Positions 8,132-29,753 of a DNA stretch of 29,753 nt are shown here, piece after piece. A model generated the notes under the pieces. That model saw only the letters and a list, made by a program, of their open reading frames with translations. It had not been told where the DNA came from and made no database searches. Positions within the stretch are counted from its first letter, which is position 1, and every line of letters begins with the position of its first letter. Source of the stretch: a virus (lineage: Duplodnaviria; Heunggongvirae; Uroviricota; Caudoviricetes); the IMG/VR virus record IMGVR_UViG_2541047785_000004, positions 1 to 29,753 of that record; one strand, given 5' to 3'. The position numbers were made by a program, and so were the translations under genes.

Positions 8132-8513
8132 TACCACCACCTCCTCCACGCTGACGGGAGAACAGACCGGATACCAGTGATGTAATCTCCTGCTGGTGGA
8201 TGAATGACAGGACTTTTACTGAGAGCACCGACACCAGGACCGCACACAACGCATCAACGGAAGCACTGTTAAACCCAATACGTTCCGCCATGTAACCGGC
8301 CACACCACGGGCCCCAAGCACACCAACAATAAAGGACACCAGAAAATGTGCAGCCACACGCCAGGCTGAAAGTGTCTGCGGCATTGTTGCCACAAATAAC
8401 GCACCAGCGAACGCACCAAATACAATCCCGAAATCCGTCCCGGTAAACAGCCCGAATACCGTCGCCCCGCCGAGCGCCACAGCAGTGCCGGAACCGGATA
8501 AGGGTTCAGACAT
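8121..8513 (-). CDS. Glycine-rich multi-pass membrane protein, holin/antiholin-like, 130 aa from the ATG at 8513
   Basis: AGGAGA 7 nt upstream of the ATG at 8513; MSEPLSGSGTAVALGGATVFGLFTGTDFGIVFGAFAGALFVATMP... has several hydrophobic Gly/Ala-rich helices; first gene of the lysis cluster. Confidence 0.5.
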   Translation of the reverse strand: MSEPLSGSGTAVALGGATVFGLFTGTDFGIVFGAFAGALFVATMPQTLSAWRVAAHFLVSFIVGVLGARGVAGYMAERIGFNSASVDALCAVLVSVLSVKVLSFIHQQEITSLVSGLFSRQRGGGGGNDK

Positions 8514-8598: not shown

Positions 8599-8751
8599 TT
8601 ATTCAGATTTGCGAAGTAAAGGCCAGAGTAAGACCGTTACCATCGCCACCAGCACACCATCAGCCAGTACCGACATCAGCCATCCAGTGAAATCCACTGC
8701 CACTACCAGAAACAACAGGATGGCAGCCAGCACAAGGCGCGCACTTTTCAC
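8599..8751 (-). CDS. Possible 50-aa two-helix membrane peptide (GTG start overlapping the TerB-like stop, GTGA)
   Basis: Manual minus-strand translation: VKSARLVLAAILLFLVVAVDFTGWLMSVLADGVLVAMVTVLLWPLLRKSE*; two hydrophobic helices; below the ORF-track size cut-off. Confidence 0.25.
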   Translation of the reverse strand: MKSARLVLAAILLFLVVAVDFTGWLMSVLADGVLVAMVTVLLWPLLRKSE

Positions 8752-9173
8752 AGATACTGCTCCAGTGGTAACTGAAGCGCCTGTGCAATTTTCTTGAGCT
8801 GCGCTTCTTCATCCGGACCAATGCCATCCTGATCAGCGATATCCAGACAGAGGCAAAGCACGTCAACCGCCTCAGTTGTCCCCGCCACATCAGCCAGCTC
8901 ACGCAATGCATGCGCATTCGCACTACGCGGTGACGCTTCATAACGGGCGCGGATATTGGCGCTCATCTGGGCAATCTCACCAGAGAACGGTGCAAAAGCA
9001 GGAAGCGCAGCAATAGTTTTCTCCAGTACTGCGATTTCTTTCGCATCGCAGGTGCCGTCGGCATATGCAATGGAATATGCGCCCCAGACGGTCGCCTCCA
9101 CCGCATCACGGTTCTCCATCTTCTTCACTTCTGTGATGGCCTTGCGGGTTTTCTTTTTGAAAATACCTAACAT
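8748..9173 (-). CDS. TerB-like (tellurite-resistance TerB fold) protein, 141 aa
   Basis: AAGGAAAAG RBS before the ATG at 9173; two repeated acidic motifs (AYADGTCDAKEIAVLEK... and DIADQDGIGPDEEAQLKKIAQAL) typical of TerB-domain proteins. Confidence 0.55.
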   Translation of the reverse strand: MLGIFKKKTRKAITEVKKMENRDAVEATVWGAYSIAYADGTCDAKEIAVLEKTIAALPAFAPFSGEIAQMSANIRARYEASPRSANAHALRELADVAGTTEAVDVLCLCLDIADQDGIGPDEEAQLKKIAQALQLPLEQYL

Positions 9174-10149: not shown

Positions 10150-11235
10150 TTAGCTCCTGTTCTTATCTAATTGTGCATTTCGCAATTTATCGTTCAGCAC
10201 CAATATTTCACCAACTGTTTGTTCAAAACGCCCGGACTCAAGTTCAACCCCAATCGTGCGACGCCCCAATCCCATTGCTGCTTTTATTGTTGCCCCCGAT
10301 CCCATAAAAAAATCCGCAACCACATCCCCCGGACGACTGCTGGCAGAAATTATCTGACGCAACATATCCGCCGGTTTTTCGCAGGGATGCTTACCCGGAT
10401 AATACTGCACGGGCTTATGCGTCCAGACGTCCGTATAAGGAACGGCGGCCGATACAGAAAAATAACGCCGCAGAGATTTGTATTCCTCAAGCAGACTGGC
10501 ATATTGCCGGTTCAGTTCACTGTATGTGCTGACCAGTTGCTGGTGTGGCGTTGCCAGCTCCCCACGCTGGTGCTTTTCTTCTGCAACACACGCGAACAGC
10601 GCCTGCAGTTTTCTGTAATCAGCTTCGTTCGGTAACTGCCACTGACAGGTACCAAACCAGTGCGACACCATGTTTTTCTTTCCGGTGGCTTCCGCTATCT
10701 GTTTGGACGTTATCCCCAGTGATTCACGCGCATCACGGAAGTAAGAAATCAGCGGGGCCATGACATGTTGTTTAAGCTCGCGCTCCTTTGCCGCATAGCC
10801 ATCATTTTTTGGCTGGTATGGCCCCTGATAATGTTCGGCAAACAGAATGCGCTCTGTTGCCGGGAAATACGCCCGCAGGCTTTCTTTGTTGCACCCGTTC
10901 CAGCGTCCGGACGGCTTCGCCCAGATAATGTGGTTCAGCACATTAAAGCGCTCACGCATCATGATTTCGATATCAGATGCCAGGCGATGACCACAAAACA
11001 GGTAAAGACTTCCGGCAGGCTTCAGTACCCGCCAGAACTGAGCCAGACACTGGTCCAGCCATTTCAGGTAATCATCGTCGCCCTTCCACTGGTTATCCCA
11101 GCCCTCGGGCTTCACTTTAAAATATGGCGGGTCTGTGACTATAAGATCGACAGAGTTTTCCGATAAGGTCTGGATAAATTCCAGGCAATCGGTGTTGATT
11201 AACTCACAACTGGATATTTTTACAGTATCAACCAT
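10150..11235 (-). CDS. Orphan DNA methyltransferase (beta-class amino-MTase, N6-adenine or N4-cytosine), 361 aa
   Basis: Motif IV DPPY (LIVTDPPYF) near the N-terminus and the AdoMet motif FxGxG (DFFMGSGAT) near the C-terminus, the beta-class order; no adjacent restriction endonuclease gene. Confidence 0.9.
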   Translation of the reverse strand: MVDTVKISSCELINTDCLEFIQTLSENSVDLIVTDPPYFKVKPEGWDNQWKGDDDYLKWLDQCLAQFWRVLKPAGSLYLFCGHRLASDIEIMMRERFNVLNHIIWAKPSGRWNGCNKESLRAYFPATERILFAEHYQGPYQPKNDGYAAKERELKQHVMAPLISYFRDARESLGITSKQIAEATGKKNMVSHWFGTCQWQLPNEADYRKLQALFACVAEEKHQRGELATPHQQLVSTYSELNRQYASLLEEYKSLRRYFSVSAAVPYTDVWTHKPVQYYPGKHPCEKPADMLRQIISASSRPGDVVADFFMGSGATIKAAMGLGRRTIGVELESGRFEQTVGEILVLNDKLRNAQLDKNRS

Positions 11236-15505: not shown

Positions 15506-15988
15506 TTATAAAAAGTCAAATGATAGTTGATCCATATAAAATCCTAATTCGCGCAAAACCACCTCGGCAAACAAATCTGCTTGCCATTCAGCATCTTCAA
15601 TTTGCGAAGGTGGTTTATTGGAACTGTGAAATAACGCTCTATGCCCCAACACCAAATGTCCGATTTCATGAAAGAGCACAAATAATGCTTCTCTATCACC
15701 TTTACATGCCAACTCAAATGTATGATTCGGCACACTAATTGTCAGTGTAATTGGATCGTAATGCCCAGATGTCAAATCATATGTAGCTTTAGTCCACGCA
15801 CGATCCTCAACGATATTGAGCGTTATCCCATATTCACTCAACAACTCAAATGCATGGTCTAACCGCTTTTTTCTTTTCAACGTTTTAAGGTCGAAGATCG
15901 CGCTATAGTTAACAGCGCGAGTTGTTATATCAACAATACTCATTGGTGCAACACGATTTCCACGTAATGTGTAAGCTGATTGTTCCAA
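15506..15988 (-). CDS. ImmA/IrrE-family zinc metallopeptidase (HEIGH motif), 160 aa, TTG start
   Basis: FVLFHEIGHLVLGHRALF contains the HExxH zinc-binding motif typical of ImmA/IrrE (COG2856) peptidases; TTG start 6 nt after the HTH gene stop with GAGGG RBS. Confidence 0.8.
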   Translation of the reverse strand: MEQSAYTLRGNRVAPMSIVDITTRAVNYSAIFDLKTLKRKKRLDHAFELLSEYGITLNIVEDRAWTKATYDLTSGHYDPITLTISVPNHTFELACKGDREALFVLFHEIGHLVLGHRALFHSSNKPPSQIEDAEWQADLFAEVVLRELGFYMDQLSFDFL

Positions 15989-15991
15989 CGA

Positions 15992-16351
15992 TTATCCCTC
16001 AACATGATTAATACTTTTCATCAACTCTGCTATTCGCTTTAACTGCTCTGGTGTTAATGGGGATTTAGCAAAACCAGCAACCAACATTTGCTGATTTTGC
16101 GACAATCCATCAAGGGAAACAAACTGATTAGATACATCAGCCAATTCCTGAAGATTATTAATCTCATAACCTCTTTTCAGGAAAAAAGCCTGAATCTCTT
16201 TTACCCATTTTTTGGGGATTTTCTTACTGCCTGTTTCTAAACCGCTCAGAAAAGCTGAAGTTACTCCCAGTTCTTGGGCCATCGTAAGCAATGTGCAGTC
16301 GGTATCTATCCTCGCTTTTCTAACGGCCTTACCGAATTCAGTGAGTGCCAT
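15992..16351 (-). CDS. XRE-family helix-turn-helix transcriptional regulator, 119 aa
   Basis: N-terminal HTH (AVRKARIDTDCTLLTMAQELGVTSAFLSGLETG); GAGGA RBS; co-oriented with and immediately upstream of the ImmA-like gene. Confidence 0.85.
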   Translation of the reverse strand: MALTEFGKAVRKARIDTDCTLLTMAQELGVTSAFLSGLETGSKKIPKKWVKEIQAFFLKRGYEINNLQELADVSNQFVSLDGLSQNQQMLVAGFAKSPLTPEQLKRIAELMKSINHVEG

Positions 16352-16577: not shown

Positions 16578-16733
16578 TTACTTCTCAGATTCGTAGTCCA
16601 CGAAGACAGCAACCTCCGTCTGGCCGGTTCGGATTCGTACCTCGCAGAGGTCTTTCCTCGTTACCAGTGCCGTCACTATGACGGTTAAACAGATGACGAT
16701 CAGGGCGATTAACATCGCCTTTTGCTGCTTCAT
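16578..16733 (-). CDS. hok: Hok/Gef-family type I toxin (HokD/RelF-like), 51 aa
   Basis: MKQQKAMLIALIVICLTVIVTALVTRKDLCEVRIRTGQTEVAVFVDYESEK: single TM helix plus the conserved LTRK.LCE.R...EVA.F..YE tail of Hok proteins; AAGGAG RBS 9 nt upstream; stable hairpin GGCGGGAG/CTCCCGCC (16547-16568) in the 3' region. Confidence 0.8.
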   Translation of the reverse strand: MKQQKAMLIALIVICLTVIVTALVTRKDLCEVRIRTGQTEVAVFVDYESEK

Positions 16734-17023
16734 AGCCTGCTTCTCCTTGCCTTTCGGCACGTAAGAGGCTAACCTAGATTTGCCGTTCATAGATTGAGCC
16801 TCAGATTAATGTTAAGCGTCTTGCAGGACGCGTAATGTTAACTGGGCTTTTCTTTATCTGCCTTTTGATGTTCATGCCTGAGACAGATAGCCTCAAGCAC
16901 CCGCAGCGATTTTACTTACCCTCCCCTCTAGTTCATTCGATACTACAACTTTATTTTCTTTTCGTTGTCTATATAGTAAATAACATGTAATAAAAGTTAG
17001 TCACTAACAATGGAGAGATGCAT

Positions 17024-17242: not shown

Positions 17243-18033
17243 TGGGTCCATTGATTATAACTGTGATTCTCGTGTGTGGTTTTTGGTACACCGAGAATCA
17301 CTATCAATCGAGAATTCATCACGCAAGAACAAATGGGTGGTCATCCTATTTCTACGTTGCAATGCATGGGTGTCGTTTTGTTGCTCAAGGATTTCTTTTG
17401 ACGCTCGGGATCTACATGCTTTTCTGGCTACTGAACTCTATCCCACACATAATCAATATTTTCCGAGACAAACCTATAGAATGGCATTTTTTTAATTGGT
17501 TACTTGAAACCAAAGTGATGGAATTACCACTTTTTGCTGTCATCACCATCATTTTCGCTTGTTGTATTGCTTACTCTGAAGGGGTGGATGCGCGAAAAGA
17601 AATGGAGAATGAAGAAGCGCGGCAAAAGGCTTACAGGGAGATGGCATCAAAAGATTCACTAGAAAACCTATTGATCCAAGCCATTGACACAGAGATGCTG
17701 ATTTTTGTAACACTAAAATCCAGAAAAGTATATATCGGGTATGTGGCAGCACCACGTGTTGAATTCCACAACAGTGCGCATCTTGAGATCATACCATTCA
17801 TTAGTGGTTACAGAGATAAGGATTCACTACGCTACATAGAACAACACCGATACTATGATCTCTATCTATCCAAAGAAATCACATTTGAGTCCGAACCATT
17901 AAATTTACAACATTTTCGACACGTCATTCCTATCGAACAAATTGAAGCGATCTCGCTCTTTGATGAAAGCACGTACAGCGATTTTGAAAGATTTTCCGAG
18001 CCAATGCCTGACACAAAGCAATTACCAGTATAG
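17242..18033 (+). CDS. Membrane protein with three N-terminal TM helices and a ~150-aa cytoplasmic domain of unknown function, 263 aa
   Basis: Hydrophobic segments PLIITVILVCGFWY, FLLTLGIYMLFWLLNSI, LPLFAVITIIFACCIAY, then a charged soluble domain; low GC; opposite strand to the flanking early-operon genes. Confidence 0.7.
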   Translation: MGPLIITVILVCGFWYTENHYQSRIHHARTNGWSSYFYVAMHGCRFVAQGFLLTLGIYMLFWLLNSIPHIINIFRDKPIEWHFFNWLLETKVMELPLFAVITIIFACCIAYSEGVDARKEMENEEARQKAYREMASKDSLENLLIQAIDTEMLIFVTLKSRKVYIGYVAAPRVEFHNSAHLEIIPFISGYRDKDSLRYIEQHRYYDLYLSKEITFESEPLNLQHFRHVIPIEQIEAISLFDESTYSDFERFSEPMPDTKQLPV

Positions 18034-18237
18034 TATTACCCCCCCCTCTAACGATATACTAAAAAGCCGCTACAACTGGACTGCCCCTATAAAGTTGGAC
18101 AGTTCATGTTAAGCGGCTTTCAGGGCTTGACCCAACAGAAGTTAGATTGTAAGTATCCCGCTTAAACGGACCATCTGGTCTTTGTTCCACGGTGACGTGC
18201 TCATACTCATACCTCCTGAAATGTGGGAGATTTGAGT

Positions 18238-18366
18238 ATGGTTGTCCCTTATGAGAGAAATTTGCACGAAGTGGATAAGTTACCGGAGCTGAAGGTCCGC
18301 TGTGAGCGAAGAGCGGACCTGAGATTGTGGTATGCTAATTTATGGGGATCAGGTCAATTGTATTAG
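18238..18366 (+). CDS. Possible 42-aa small ORF with hairpin-sequestered RBS
   Basis: GGGAGA 7 nt upstream of the ATG at 18238; peptide MVVPYERNLHEVDKLPELKVRCERRADLRLWYANLWGSGQLY; the RBS pairs with the upstream ACCTCC; contains a 9-bp perfect stem (18293-18320). Confidence 0.25.
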   Translation: MVVPYERNLHEVDKLPELKVRCERRADLRLWYANLWGSGQLY

Positions 18367-23960: not shown

Positions 23961-24027
23961 ACCTATTAGGTTACGATCAAAACATTAGGCATAGCCTATT
24001 GACAATCAATTAGGCATTACCTATAGT
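23961..24027 (+). promoter_or_regulatory. Left operator/promoter region (pL-like): TTGACA-N17-TATAGT with overlapping TTAGGCAT(A/T)(G/A)CCTA operators
   Basis: ttaggcatagccta (23985-23998), ttaggcattaccta (24010-24023); -35 TTGACA 23999-24004, -10 TATAGT 24022-24027; mirrors the cctattgaca motif of the right promoter. Confidence 0.6.
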
Positions 24028-25278: not shown

Positions 25279-25328
25279 GCGGGTATCCGTTTTTTGTTTT
25301 CCCTTGTGATACCCGCCCTTTTTAAAGT
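25279..25328 (+). terminator. Plus-strand intrinsic terminator-like hairpin (10-bp stem ggcgggtatc/gatacccgcc, 20-nt loop, then CTTTTTAAA)
   Basis: Seen directly; in the GC-rich non-coding stretch of the early-left operon. Confidence 0.45.
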
Positions 25329-25506
25329 GAATTTTGTGATGCGGTGAATGCGGCTCAGCGCACGCGGAACAGTTAAAAAGGCCAGTTGACTTCCGTATTG
25401 GTTCTTATGGGTGGGTTCTCTGTATCCGGCGTTAATTATTAACTGGTTAACGTCACCTGGAGGCACCAGGCACCGCATCACAAAATTCATTGTTGAGGAT
25501 GCGATA

Positions 25507-25689
25507 ATGGAAACGTTATTACCAAACGTCAATACGTCTGAAGGTTGTTTTGAAATTGGTGTCAGAATCAGTAACCCTGTATTTACTGAAGATGCCATTA
25601 ATAAGAGAAAACACGAACGGGAGCTATTAAATCAAATATGCATTGTTTCAATGCTGGCCCGTTTACGCCTGATGCAAAAAGGACGATGA
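25507..25689 (+). CDS. Small early protein (KilR/YdaE-position), 60 aa
   Basis: GAGGA RBS before the ATG at 25507; METLLPNVNTSEGCFEIGVRISNPVFTEDAINKRKHERELLNQICIVSMLARLRLMQKGR; stop overlaps the next start (ATGA). Confidence 0.5.
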   Translation: METLLPNVNTSEGCFEIGVRISNPVFTEDAINKRKHERELLNQICIVSMLARLRLMQKGR

Positions 25690-25895
25690 CAATGAATACA
25701 GTATTTGCACTCGTTCTGACGGTTTTTCTTAATACAGGCGAGCCAGTCGATCTTGTTATTGGTATACATGACTCAATGAAAGAATGCATGGCTGCCGCAG
25801 CGGAACAGAAAATTCCCGGCAACTGTTATCCGGTTGATAAAGTTATTCGCATGGACAATAACGAAATCCCGGCAGGACTTAAAACAGCACCGTAA
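25686..25895 (+). CDS. Small protein with hydrophobic N-terminus (signal/anchor-like), 69 aa
   Basis: MTMNTVFALVLTVFLNTGEPVDLVIGIHDSMKECMAAAAEQKIPGNCYPVDKVIRMDNNEIPAGLKTAP; translationally coupled to the upstream ORF. Confidence 0.5.
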   Translation: MTMNTVFALVLTVFLNTGEPVDLVIGIHDSMKECMAAAAEQKIPGNCYPVDKVIRMDNNEIPAGLKTAP

Positions 25896-25975: not shown

Positions 25976-28447
25976 ATGAGTAAAGTCTTTATTTGCGCCG
26001 CCATTCCGGACGAACAGGCAATAAAGGAAGAAGGTGCAGTCGCTGTAGCCACTGCCATTGAAGCCGGCGACGAACGCCGCGCCCGAGCCAAATTTACCTG
26101 GCAATTCCTGGAGCAATATCCGGCTGCTCAGGACTGCGCTTATAAATTTCTTGTTTGCGAGGATAAACCCGGCATGCCCCGCCCTGCCATCGACTCCTGG
26201 GATACCGAATATATGCAGGAAAACTGCTGGGATGAGGAATCCGCTTCCTTTATTCCGGTCGAACCAGAATCCGATCCGATGAACGTCAATTTTGACAAGC
26301 TGTCCCCTGAAGTACAGAACGCGGTCCTGGTTAAGTTCGACACATGTGAAAACATCACCATTGATATGGTTATTAGCGCACAGGAATTGTTGCAGGAAGA
26401 CATGGCAACATTCGACGGACATATCGTTGAAGCGTTGATGAAAATGCCAGAAGTTAACGCCATGTATCCGGAGCTTAAGTTGCACGCCATTGGGTGGGTT
26501 AAGCATAAATGTATTCCTGGTGCTAAATGGCCCGAAATTCAGGCAGAGATGCGCATCTGGAAAAAACGTCGCGAAGGTGAACGCAAGGAAACCGGAAAAT
26601 ACACGTCTGTTGTTGATCTCGCCCGCGCCAGAGCCAATCAACAGTACACTGACAATTCAACAGGAAAAATCAGCCCGGTCATTGCTGCCACTCATCGCGA
26701 ATACAAGCAGACATGGAAAACACTGGATGACGAACTGGCCTACGCTCTCTGGCCTGGTGATGTGGATGCCGGAAACATTGACGGCAGCATCCATCGCTGG
26801 GCAAAAAATGAAGTTATCGACAACGACCGCGAAGACTGGAAGCGTATCTCGGCATCAATGCGCAAACAGCCTGATGCCCTTCGCTACGACCGCCAGACTA
26901 TTTTTGGCCTTGTCCGTGAACGTCCGATCGACATTCACAAAGACCCTGTGGCACTGAACAAATACATTACTGAATACCTGACTACAAAGGGCGTGTTTGA
27001 AGATGAAGGAAGAAATCAGAGCGCAACTGATACTCTCTCGTCGCCAGTACCAGAAACTGATGCAGTGGAAACGGCAATTCCGGACAACGAAAAAACCGAA
27101 TGCAAAGTGGAAGTCGAACCATCTGTAGAGCGTGAGGGGCCGTTCTACTTCCTCTTCACCGACAAGGATGGCGAAAAATATGGTCGCGCAAACAAACTTT
27201 CTGGTCTGAATAAGGCGCTGACTGCAGGGGCTACTGAAATCACGAAAGAAGAATATTTTGCCCGTAAAAACGGTACATACTCAGGTTCACAACAAAATAC
27301 TGGTGCATCTGACACGACCGCACAACCAGAGCCGGTAAAAGTTACCGCTGACGAAGTAAACAAAATTATGCAGGCAGCCAATATCACCCAGCCTGACGCC
27401 GATAAGTTGCTTGCTGTATCACGTGGTGAATTTGTTGCAGGGATTAGCGACCCGAATGATCCGAAATGGGTGAAGGGGATTGAAACCCGCGATTCAGTGA
27501 ATCAGAACCAGCAAGAAACGGAACAGAACGACCAGAAAGCGGAACAAAACAGCCCAAATGCGTTACAAAACGAGCCAGAAACGAAACAACCTGAGCCAGT
27601 AGCGCAACAGGAAGCGGAAAAAGTCTGCACCGCCTGCGGTCAGACCGGCGGCGGCAACTGCCCTGATTGTGGTGCGGTGATGGGCGACGCAACATACCAG
27701 GAAACATTCGATGACAAGAACCAGGTTGAAGTTCAGGAAGACGATTCGGAGAAAATGGAAGGCGCTGAACATCCACACAAAGAGAATGCTGGCAGCGCTC
27801 AGGATCACGCCAGCGATAGTGAAACTGGCGAGACGGCAGATCCCTTAATTACGGTGAACGGTCATCACGTTATCACATCCACCAGCAGGACGTGTGACCA
27901 TCTAATGATCGACCTTGAAACCATGGGAAAAAATCCTGATGCCCCGATTATCTCAATAGGTGCAATATTTTTCGATCCTCAAACCGGAGATATGGGACCG
28001 GAATTTAGTAAGACTATCGATCTGGAAACTGCTGGCGGAGTCATTGATCGGGACACCATTAAATGGTGGCTTAAGCAATCACGCGAAGCGCAATCTGCCA
28101 TTATGACCGATGAAATCCCGTTAGATGATGCACTGTTACAATTGCGGGAATTTATCGACGAAAACTCCGGTGAATTTTTTGTTCAGGTCTGGGGAAATGG
28201 AGCCAACTTCGACAACACGATTTTGCGCCGTTCATACGAACGGCAGGGGATCCCCTGCCCGTGGCGTTACTACAACGATCGCGATGTACGCACAATCGTT
28301 GAGCTGGGGAAAGCCATAGACTTCGATGCCAGAACGGCTATTCCATTCGAAGGTGAGCGCCATAATGCACTTGATGACGCCCGTTACCAGGCAAAATACG
28401 TTTCAGCAATCTGGCAAAAACTGATCCCGAATCCGGTTGATTTTTAA
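25976..28447 (+). CDS. RecE-like large recombination protein with a CxxC…CxxC zinc ribbon and a C-terminal DnaQ-like DEDDh 3'-5' exonuclease domain, 823 aa
   Basis: Central region (EREGPFYFLFTDKDGEKYGRAN…, DADKLLAVSRGEFVAGISDPNDPKWVKGIETRD) resembles recalled RecE N-terminal/middle segments; zinc ribbon CTACGQTGGGNCPDCG; exonuclease motifs MIDLETMG (Exo I), WGNGANFDNTIL (Exo II), HNALDDARY (Exo III, DEDDh). Confidence 0.8.
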   Translation: MSKVFICAAIPDEQAIKEEGAVAVATAIEAGDERRARAKFTWQFLEQYPAAQDCAYKFLVCEDKPGMPRPAIDSWDTEYMQENCWDEESASFIPVEPESDPMNVNFDKLSPEVQNAVLVKFDTCENITIDMVISAQELLQEDMATFDGHIVEALMKMPEVNAMYPELKLHAIGWVKHKCIPGAKWPEIQAEMRIWKKRREGERKETGKYTSVVDLARARANQQYTDNSTGKISPVIAATHREYKQTWKTLDDELAYALWPGDVDAGNIDGSIHRWAKNEVIDNDREDWKRISASMRKQPDALRYDRQTIFGLVRERPIDIHKDPVALNKYITEYLTTKGVFEDEGRNQSATDTLSSPVPETDAVETAIPDNEKTECKVEVEPSVEREGPFYFLFTDKDGEKYGRANKLSGLNKALTAGATEITKEEYFARKNGTYSGSQQNTGASDTTAQPEPVKVTADEVNKIMQAANITQPDADKLLAVSRGEFVAGISDPNDPKWVKGIETRDSVNQNQQETEQNDQKAEQNSPNALQNEPETKQPEPVAQQEAEKVCTACGQTGGGNCPDCGAVMGDATYQETFDDKNQVEVQEDDSEKMEGAEHPHKENAGSAQDHASDSETGETADPLITVNGHHVITSTSRTCDHLMIDLETMGKNPDAPIISIGAIFFDPQTGDMGPEFSKTIDLETAGGVIDRDTIKWWLKQSREAQSAIMTDEIPLDDALLQLREFIDENSGEFFVQVWGNGANFDNTILRRSYERQGIPCPWRYYNDRDVRTIVELGKAIDFDARTAIPFEGERHNALDDARYQAKYVSAIWQKLIPNPVDF

Positions 28448-28513: not shown

Positions 28514-28765
28514 ATGTACGAATTAACTCTATCGCCAGCAGAGATTCAAGAGATCACGAAATACGAGCGATACACAAAACAGCAACACCAGTTAAGGCTG
28601 CACGGTATCCCATTTGTAATCGGTCCTAAAAACGAACCAATAGTTCTTCGCAGGGATATTCCACACGGACTGACTACGATGCCAAAAGCACCTGAACTGG
28701 TTTCCGCTGAACCCGATTTTGAGGCGCTGAACAATGGGAAGACCAAGAAAAAACAAAAAAGATAA
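28514..28765 (+). CDS. xis: Putative excisionase (Xis-position protein), 83 aa
   Basis: Immediately upstream of and overlapping the integrase start as in lambda; N-terminal MYELTL and basic C-terminus NNGKTKKKQKR loosely resemble lambda Xis (MYLTLQEW…NGKKAKS). Confidence 0.5.
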   Translation: MYELTLSPAEIQEITKYERYTKQQHQLRLHGIPFVIGPKNEPIVLRRDIPHGLTTMPKAPELVSAEPDFEALNNGKTKKKQKR

Positions 28766-29753
28766 TGCACTACCACCGCGTGTTAGATCGAATGGTTACA
28801 GTTACGTATGGAAACCCGAAGGAAGCACAAGAACTATAGGGCTCGGAAGAGTGTGGGAAACCAGCGTAGCTAAAGTCTGGCAAAATTATGAGCTGGAAAA
28901 AGCAAAACTCCACAACATAATGACAGTAGCTAAATTATGGCACATGTTTATGGACTCCCCTGCATTTACAGAACTGGCCCCCCGAACCCAAAAAGATTAT
29001 CGGCAACATCAAAGGGCATTGTTGGCAGTATTCGGAAAAGTGCTTGCTGATAATGTAAAAATTGAACAGGTAAGAATTTTCATGGATAAGCGAGGACTTG
29101 AGAGCAAGACCCAGGCAAACCATGAACTGGCAAGTCTGAGCCGTGTATACGGATGGGGATATGAGCGTGGGTATGTGAAAAATAATCCATGCAAAGGAGT
29201 CAGAAAATTCACACTTAAAGCCCGTACTGTTTACATCACCGATGAACAGTATGCTGCAATATATGCGGAAGCAATTCCACAGTTACGTATTGCAATGGAG
29301 ATATCCTATCTTTGTGCGGCAAGGCTCGGTGATGTACTCGAGCTGAAATGGCAGGATATTATGGAGAAAGGGATTTACATTGAGCAAAACAAGACCGGCA
29401 CTAAACAAATCAAGGAATGGTCTCCGCGATTACGTACGGCGATCCAGTTAGCCCGAAATGTATCTTCCGGCACATGCGAGTATGTGATCAACACAACCAA
29501 AGGCGGGAAGGTAATAGCCAAGACGCTGAACAACTGGTGGAATCAGGCTAAACGTGCAGCCGAGCAAAAAGCCGGCGTTCCGTTTGGGTGCAACTTCCAT
29601 GACATAAAAGCCAAAGGGATTTCAGATTACGAAGGCAGCAGTCGCGACAAACAAATTTTCAGTGGACACAAAACAGAAAATCAGGTGTTGATTTACGATC
29701 GTAAAACCAAAATAACACCAACACTGGATTTGCCGCTTGTGGTCAGTAAGTAG
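28734..29753 (+). CDS. int: Tyrosine integrase, lambda Int family, 339 aa (stop at window end)
   Basis: N-terminal arm-binding-like region MGRPRKNKKDNALPPRVRSNGYSYVWKPEGSTRTIGLGR; catalytic region IAMEISYLCAARLGDVLELKW…IYIEQNKTG…FHDIKAKG…SGHKTENQVLIYDRK carries the R…K…H…H…Y signature in lambda Int order. Confidence 0.9.
   Translation: MGRPRKNKKDNALPPRVRSNGYSYVWKPEGSTRTIGLGRVWETSVAKVWQNYELEKAKLHNIMTVAKLWHMFMDSPAFTELAPRTQKDYRQHQRALLAVFGKVLADNVKIEQVRIFMDKRGLESKTQANHELASLSRVYGWGYERGYVKNNPCKGVRKFTLKARTVYITDEQYAAIYAEAIPQLRIAMEISYLCAARLGDVLELKWQDIMEKGIYIEQNKTGTKQIKEWSPRLRTAIQLARNVSSGTCEYVINTTKGGKVIAKTLNNWWNQAKRAAEQKAGVPFGCNFHDIKAKGISDYEGSSRDKQIFSGHKTENQVLIYDRKTKITPTLDLPLVVSK

Follow-up and report, generated by a model that had tools for sequence, protein, structure and literature searches.

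A gene at positions 25976..28447 (+) of a 29,753-nucleotide stretch of Caudoviricetes DNA (IMG/VR record IMGVR_UViG_2541047785_000004, positions 1 to 29,753; hereafter the window) joins a YdfE-type N-terminus and a RecE-like middle region to a predicted C-terminal DEDDh exonuclease domain. The DEDDh cassette occupies the place that the PD-(D/E)xK nuclease of RecE and recT hold in Rac-type prophages. As judged from its N-terminus, which is 93% identical to K-12 YdfE, and from a gene order that is the same as in the Qin prophage, this open reading frame (ORF) is the intact, full-length ydfE. It is the last early-left-operon gene ahead of xis/int in Qin- and mEp460-like lambdoid prophages. We think it probable that the product, expressed from the early-left operon in lytic growth and built on a modular YdfE/RecE scaffold, serves as a 3'-5' DNA exonuclease that works independently of an annealase. 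This is no new kind of system, since the gene and its arrangement are already catalogued as PHROG 2082 and, in the part of PMC12315714 concerned with them, as the Tritos class. The gene is composed of the following parts.

25976..28447 (+): full ORF, 823 amino acids (aa), intact ydfE-family exonuclease; identical to RefSeq WP_063121881.1, 'exonuclease'
25976..26743 (+): YdfE-type N-terminal region, aa 1-256, 93% identity to K-12 ydfE (b1577)
26693..27007 (+): second helical domain, aa 240-344; AlphaFold2 predicted local distance difference test score (pLDDT) 95-98; common to genuine RecE proteins
27008..27394 (+): mostly disordered polar linker, aa 345-473; AlphaFold2 pLDDT <50 for aa 345-457; 41% Q/N/S/T/P/G
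27395..27843 (+): RecE middle segment, aa 474-623; blastn match to Rac-SA53 recE with 81% DNA identity, 72% at the protein level
27626..27670 (+): Cys4 knuckle C551-x2-C554-x7-C562-x2-C565, by motif; Pfam DZR match weak, E 0.12
27834..27843 (+): module junction, aa 620-623; end of the Rac recE homology at 27843, start of the DEDDh-cassette homology at 27834
27879..27886 (-): Chi octamer inside the DEDDh cassette, 36 nt past the junction
27899..28414 (+): predicted DEDDh 3'-5' exonuclease domain, DexA/Rv2179c-like, aa 642-813, from Pfam, catalytic residues and fold

The C-terminal domain matches Pfam PF16473 (Rv2179c-like 3'-5' exonuclease) over aa 642-813 with an E value of 1.6e-67 and 227.1 bits (gathering threshold 27), and the match covers positions 2-177 of the 177 in the model. 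The DEDDh motifs Exo I (DxE), Exo II (D) and Exo III (H-x4-D) are all present, and residues D646, E648, D746, H796 and D801 align with the catalytic residues D7, E9, D119, H186 and D191 of T4 DexA. The PF16473 match and the DexA alignment bear out the proposal of a first-pass annotation, made from the sequence alone, that DnaQ-like motifs stand where RecE has its PD-(D/E)xK nuclease. The domain annotation by hidden Markov models (HMMs) that it had called for found PF16473 and no canonical RecE nuclease domain, and the RecE nuclease (DUF3799/PF12684; RecE ~564-866) gave no Pfam, BLASTP or phmmer match in the ORF protein. The only solved relatives retrieved by sequence at E<=0.01 were the T4 DexA structures 8KEL and 8KEN. 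By fold, the domain is DnaQ-like; DexA and RNase T tie, and RNase T, Orn and REXO2 are among the top matches. We infer that the domain is a 3'-5' exonuclease, as are the characterised DEDDh members.

The structure of DexA has been solved, and its Escherichia coli homologue EcD has been studied (Kang et al. 2025, PMC12153337). Both DexA (PDB 8KEL) and EcD belong, like the ORF, to the PF16473 subfamily with the same five catalytic residues, but they are stand-alone proteins of ~190-230 aa, whereas the ORF domain forms the C-terminus of an 823-aa protein; EcD and the ORF domain are 38% identical. Another stand-alone relative is the Salmonella DEDDh exonuclease P0110 (189 aa), which is 60% identical to the ORF domain and likewise lies directly before xis and int, but lacks the scaffold and has different early-left neighbours (DndB-like, DUF2303). 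The position beside int is conserved whether the DEDDh domain is fused or stand-alone. In Salmonella enterica (L020-L022:6001-6570), this 189-aa gene stands upstream of xis-int, after the DndB-like and DUF2303 genes, in a different lambdoid prophage. A reading of the C-terminal '...PVDF' tail of the ORF protein as a mimic of the tip of single-stranded DNA-binding protein (SSB), and the idea of a clamp-binding motif in the protein, were dropped, the tail not being conserved in the Salmonella stand-alone homologue.

The region ahead of the nuclease is related to RecE, although not over its whole length. The NCBIfam exodeoxyribonuclease VIII model (NF007259) matches aa 238-626 with its positions 261-603 of 877 only, ending before the nuclease domain, and the equivalog score of 279.8 bits lies below the curated cut-off of 1269. 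In BLASTP, aa 474-626, with the Cys4 motif among them, are 72% identical to Rac-SA53 RecE. The helical domain of aa 240-344, where the NCBIfam match starts, has a weak BLASTP match to aa 295-368 of Rac-SA53 RecE and shows 78% DNA identity to a gene of locus L012 that combines PF06630, the enterobacterial RecE N-terminal domain, with a DEDDh domain. In the structure model, which was computed by AlphaFold2 with a multiple sequence alignment (a single-sequence AlphaFold2 run gave a mean pLDDT of 35.6 and was set aside), an acidic/polar linker of ~300 residues is largely disordered and includes the Cys4 knuckle and, at 470-500, a short helix. Because the knuckle lies inside the stretch that is 72% identical to Rac-SA53 RecE, which has an identical Cys4 motif, it belongs on this alignment to the RecE middle region and is no addition special to the fusion. 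Of the 13 family members with the segment, 12 retain all four Cys; DEDDh and PD-(D/E)xK forms are both represented. The zinc motif noted earlier ahead of the nuclease is thus present (CxxC at 551-554 and 562-565), but as a part of the RecE middle and not as a mark of this fusion.

The N-terminus is of another kind. The likeness to RecE claimed for both the N-terminal and middle regions holds for aa 238-626, but not for aa 1-256, which are 93% identical to YdfE; PF06630 has no match in the ORF at E<=1, and is present in the relatives P0142 and P0249. YdfE_N (PF27430) and YdfE_C (PF27432) are recorded for relatives with the same N-terminus (P0053, P0067, P0126, P0130 and P0132). A helical domain at ~aa 100-210 within this region is modelled with a pLDDT of ~90. 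K-12 ydfE is cut at codon 256 by IS2E, and K-12 YdfE is without the RecE-like middle and the nuclease, whereas the window copy is intact. The gene order is dicB, ydfD, ydfE, IS2, intQ in Qin and dicB, DUF1482, ORF, DUF4224 (xis-like), int in the window, so that the synteny dicB, ydfD, ydfE, int is common to both. In the Qin prophage of K-12 MG1655 (L019:5079-5999), the pseudogene ydfE consists of the N-terminal 256 codons of the exonuclease gene.

Rac RecE with RecT holds the same slot as the ORF, as the last large early-left gene before xis/int, and Rac RecE shares with it both the helical domain of aa 240-344 and aa 474-623. The two differ at their ends: Rac RecE has a PD-(D/E)xK 5'-3' nuclease where the ORF has the predicted DEDDh 3'-5' domain, and PF06630 where aa 1-256 of the ORF are YdfE-type. 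Unlike Rac, the ORF locus has no recT, ralR or ydaC downstream. The module junction is sharp and was placed at aa 620-623, ~20 residues ahead of the Exo I motif, because homology to Rac ends at 27843 and the cassette shared with the L012 DEDDh gene, which is otherwise divergent and has a PF06630 N-terminus, starts from gene nt 1859 (window 27834).

An exhaustive HMMER search with scaffold aa 1-640 returned 254 cluster representatives. Among the long scaffold relatives, 7 end in a DEDDh domain, at least 11 in a RecE-type PD-(D/E)xK domain and several in no recognisable nuclease; the N-termini are of the YdfE or the PF06630 type. Proteins combining PF06630 and PF16473 display the same fusion logic on a different N-terminal module. 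The scaffold family is therefore combinatorial, with exchangeable N-terminal, middle and nuclease modules. Genes encoding YdfE_N and YdfE_C with no recognisable nuclease (702-778 aa) occupy the same slot before xis/int in the metagenome contigs L016, L017 and L018, and a Sipho_Gp157 gene and a weak Gam-like gene flank that of L018; these scaffold-only proteins are probably the 'RecE-2' of PMC12315714.

The type of cassette tracks recT in all loci read (3 with PD-(D/E)xK, 9 with DEDDh).

PD-(D/E)xK cassette: Rac-SA53, L015 and L014; followed by recT
DEDDh cassette: the window, HannyBb, Tritos, mEp460, Evi, PPompW, L011, L012 and L013; followed by xis and/or int

Eight of the nine DEDDh loci run straight into xis/int or int; in Evi, a small ORF in the xis position is followed by a mobile element and int is replaced. 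A tblastn search with RecT found no match in the window or in nine related loci. The Chi octamer within the cassette has a counterpart at the same position in HannyBb, Tritos, mEp460, Evi and PPompW; one also closely precedes the DEDDh domain in the divergent PF06630+DEDDh gene of L012/L013, but L011 has none. The site may promote cassette exchange as a recombination hotspot, or may simply belong to the conserved cassette.

The gene is maintained in phages as well as in prophages. The sequenced phage genomes with the gene include the isolate HannyBb, and plaque-forming phages share the gene order. HannyBb, Tritos and mEp460 retain an open frame of 823 aa, and that of Evi has 826 aa. Against these four orthologues, the ratio of non-synonymous to synonymous substitution rates (dN/dS) of the whole gene is 0.22-0.30. 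Segment by segment, dN/dS is 0.17-0.38 against HannyBb, Tritos and mEp460, the disordered linker included, and 0.14-0.58 against Evi, where the value of 0.58 comes from a segment with a dS of only 0.014. All segments are under purifying selection. The dS against Evi is 1.09 for the exonuclease domain and 0.014 for aa 261-470, and such unevenness among segments is a signature of mosaic exchange.

The neighbourhood of the ORF contains the following features.

23999..24027 (+): candidate pL-like promoter, 11/12 consensus, downstream of racR; from a consensus scan only
25507..25895 (+): dicB and ydfD-like (DUF1482), early-left genes upstream of the ORF, in the order seen in Qin
28514-28765 (+): DUF4224 xis-like gene directly downstream, with no recT between
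28734-29753 (+): tyrosine integrase gene, downstream of DUF4224

The first-pass annotation had pointed to Xis-like and Int genes next to the ORF and to the lack of an annealing partner, and this holds beyond the window: neither the window nor the DNA past its right end nor the most closely related complete prophage yielded an annealase. To the right of int, the best-matching genome has host yccA; to the left of the window, the closest relatives have lambda-like head and tail genes that reach tRNA-Ser, and between tRNA-Ser and int, RefSeq names list no annealase in the best-matching genomes. PHROG and Pfam scans of the unnamed window ORFs found no family of single-strand annealing protein (SSAP), although very divergent annealases could escape these scans and the tblastn search; these ORFs were assigned to replication, HNH/DUF968, Ren-like and families without assigned function. 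Thus, neither a canonical RecE nuclease nor an annealase gene just outside the window, both of which were looked for, was found. As predicted from its sequence, the locus does not qualify as a SynExo (exonuclease + SSAP) pair, having no adjacent SSAP such as RecT, Red-beta, ERF, Rad52/Sak or Sak4 and, in place of a 5'-3' dsDNA exonuclease that leaves 3' tails, a DEDDh domain as its sole nuclease domain, the characterised members of this class being 3'-5'.

Some further features of the window and its relatives stand apart from the exonuclease gene. Rfam found no DicF small RNA upstream of dicB (25330-25484, +), where Qin and Tritos have one; the same interval has an STnc100 match below threshold (33.5 bits vs a gathering score of 47), and 25307-25491 is 81% identical to the Rac-SA53 DNA upstream of kilR. 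In the moron region, a sok antisense RNA (16728-16902, -; Rfam 95.6 bits) adjoins a Hok/Gef gene and forms with it a hok/sok toxin-antitoxin module. Between the nin region and hok/sok lie genes for an ImmA/IrrE metallopeptidase and a helix-turn-helix (HTH) regulator (15506-16351, -); this pair may act as a second switch that is independent of SOS, or be a moron. Accessory genes of the late region (8599-9173, -; 10150-11235, -) include TerB-family and DUF3927 genes beside the lysis cassette and a DNA methyltransferase gene downstream of Q. None of the collection's complete genomes matches the whole window, the best being EC43 with 90% coverage and 98.8% identity. The prophage of NZ_OU342919 is otherwise 99.9% identical to the window but has an IS2 (L001 11199-12427) that is absent at ~18030-18360, and it has lost the portal and terminase genes that the window keeps.

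The arrangement is common: the gene is among the commonest lambdoid prophage genes of E. coli. At >=80% coverage, 3532 of the 5426 complete genomes contain it; the median number of matching places per genome is 2, and E. coli has roughly 10,000 copies in all. The non-canonical recombination or nuclease function that the first-pass annotation read into the arrangement is conjectural. PHROG 2082 covers the ORF from end to end (823/823). RefSeq sometimes names the gene '3'-5' exoribonuclease domain-containing protein', and many records label it 'exodeoxyribonuclease VIII / RecE'.

The passages of Zheng et al. (2025, PMC12315714) that deal with such phages describe Tritos as the prototype of a lambdoid class with a nuclease, no annealase, no SSB, no anti-RecBCD function and many Chi sites, these being mostly in one orientation. 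They also note DnaQ-type nucleases 'very near int' in lambdoid phages, and state that 22% of lambdoid phages are without a Rec module and apparently dependent on RecBCD-Chi. The class takes up one table row there, and the protein is not dissected in those passages. Tritos has an orthologue of the ORF that is 92% identical at the nt level and stands in the same series of genes (dicB, ydfD, exo, xis, int), and in the window the nuclease is present, while no annealing protein, SSB or anti-RecBCD gene was found. The window contains 8 Chi octamers (GCTGGTGG), compared with 1.02 expected, and 0 of 100 shuffles reach 8. They lie at 8192, 8646, 11351, 14118, 14170, 14760, 22702 and 27879, with 3 on the + and 5 on the - strand of what is only a part of the prophage. 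This density is host-like and fits a lambdoid phage without Gam and Red that relies on RecBCD.

We propose the following model. After induction or infection, the protein would be made from the pL-type operon; this expression is suggested because the gene lies on the same strand downstream of the strong promoter-like site at 23999-24027 and has no promoter-like site of its own, the consensus scan having found none comparable between there and the exonuclease gene. The metal-dependent 3'-5' exonuclease would then act on DNA 3' ends without a dedicated annealase and would thus not be a two-component (SynExo) recombinase. The shared scaffold may bring whichever nuclease it carries to one common partner or substrate. 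Phages of this type, which lack Red/RecET and Gam, presumably rely on host RecBCD-Chi/RecA recombination, to which the nuclease may add an accessory end-processing or DNA-degrading activity. On sequence grounds, the outcome could be help with RecBCD/RecA-dependent concatemers, DNA degradation or phage exclusion. A bolder version, possible but doubtful, is that the YdfE/RecE scaffold is a general platform that delivers interchangeable nucleases of opposite polarity, either PD-(D/E)xK 5'-3' with RecT or DEDDh 3'-5' alone, to one common partner or DNA structure, with the DEDDh form, as an end-processing activity that needs no annealase, channelling the DNA of Red-/Gam-less phages into RecBCD-Chi/RecA, or disarming or mimicking host defence.

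Several points weigh against the proposed model. The promoter scan is a consensus match and no evidence of expression, and both the 3'-5' polarity and the DNA substrate rest on homology only; PF16473 is named after an exoribonuclease and the top folds include RNases, so that an RNA substrate is possible. The coupling to recT comes from only 3 versus 9 sampled loci. Fold searches found no structural analogue of the helical domains, and because they gave no match for the scaffold, its 'delivery' role is conjecture. Moreover, 3'-5' DnaQ-like exonucleases usually inhibit recombination and do not promote it, according to a passage in PMC12315714; for this reason, a pro-recombination role is the weakest step.

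Four other explanations were considered, and we rank them in the order in which they are given here. The most credible of them, although unlikely, is a superinfection-exclusion or defence nuclease of the 'HREX' type, which, like EcD, would selectively degrade incoming phage DNA with modified cytosine and would protect the lysogen. Defence genes are frequent in prophages; the homologue EcD is reported to digest DNA with 5-hydroxymethylcytosine (5hmC) and, when expressed from a plasmid, to protect E. coli from T4 (PMC12153337), and EcD is itself prophage-borne. However, the residues proposed in that paper for 5hmC recognition are not conserved in the ORF, in which DexA W152 corresponds to Y766 and D169 to K779 (the latter less certain, the alignment near D169 being gapped), whereas EcD has W and E. 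The tetramer residue D90 of DexA, the loss of which is said to give selectivity, is kept as D718 but is A78 in EcD. PADLOC assigned no defence system and returned only a generic, weak CRISPR-associated DEDDh match (E 1.9e-5), and a defence function gives no role to the 640-aa scaffold held in common with RecE. The ORF also ends a repressed early-left operon and has no promoter-like site of its own, although EcD too lies in an early operon, that of a P2-like prophage. Because of this location, EcD, although described as a bacterial defence against T4, is a temperate-phage early gene and not a host gene. In E. coli S19-651 (L005:5989-6567), small early ORFs lie on one side of it and the ParE-like, dam and gpA genes on the other; it was located via the published cloning primers, the reverse of which is one base off the genome copy, so that EcD as studied may differ slightly from this sequence. 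Next, and also rather unlikely, is a 3'-5' exoribonuclease like Rv2179c, RNase T or Orn, which would attack short oligonucleotides or the 3' ends of RNA from phage or host, for instance for transcript processing or the removal of signalling nucleotides. The Mycobacterium tuberculosis exoribonuclease Rv2179c gave PF16473 its name, the best fold matches include RNase T, Orn and REXO2, the name exoribonuclease appears in RefSeq, and prophage DEDDh RNases with auxiliary domains are reported to defend against RNA phages (PMC13344964). An ISG20-like 'TONDO' preprint and a paper on Gifsy-1 RtcR were also considered and set aside, as they have no demonstrable link to the ORF family.

Single-strand-annealing recombination with an annealase supplied in trans, by RecT/Bet of another prophage or by an unrecognised early protein, appears improbable. 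E. coli genomes usually hold several lambdoid prophages, with the median of 2 matching places given above, and several window ORFs of 230-270 aa are without assigned function; these unnamed ORFs, however, lie in the nin/moron and replication regions and not beside the nuclease. The 5' overhangs that a 3'-5' exonuclease leaves are the reverse of those used to load RecT/Bet in the known lambda Exo/Bet and RecE/RecT systems. In addition, the RecE fragment that is sufficient with RecT is the nuclease domain (PMC11611040), which is missing in the ORF, and in the relevant part of PMC12315714 the free-living phages with the gene have no annealing protein genome-wide. Least credible is a non-functional chimera, a decaying recE remnant joined by accident to a DEDDh gene in a defective prophage. 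Prophages of the family are often defective, as exemplified by the IS2-truncated ydfE of K-12, the frameshift in PPompW and the deletions and IS2 in NZ_OU342919. Yet frame length is kept in the phage orthologues, dN/dS is low in every segment, the catalytic residues are intact and the same fusion logic recurs with PF06630 and PF16473. We rejected this reading as very improbable on the basis of dN/dS and conservation in phages.

Compared with these alternatives, we retain the annealase-independent exonuclease on a YdfE/RecE scaffold as the preferred reading. Its main value lies in annotation and interpretation, as the label 'exodeoxyribonuclease VIII / RecE' implies a polarity that is wrong and a partner for recombineering that is absent. 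The K-12 pseudogene 'ydfE' can be read as the stump of an exonuclease gene. That EcD and the ORF are both temperate-phage early genes matters to the question of who benefits from such DEDDh nucleases, the host or the phage. The N-terminal part of RecE is without known function (PMC11611040), and the swap of cassettes coupled to the presence or absence of recT amounts to a natural experiment on its role. If the delivery-platform reading were true, it would offer a first approach to the N-terminal two-thirds of RecE, which have long lacked an explanation.

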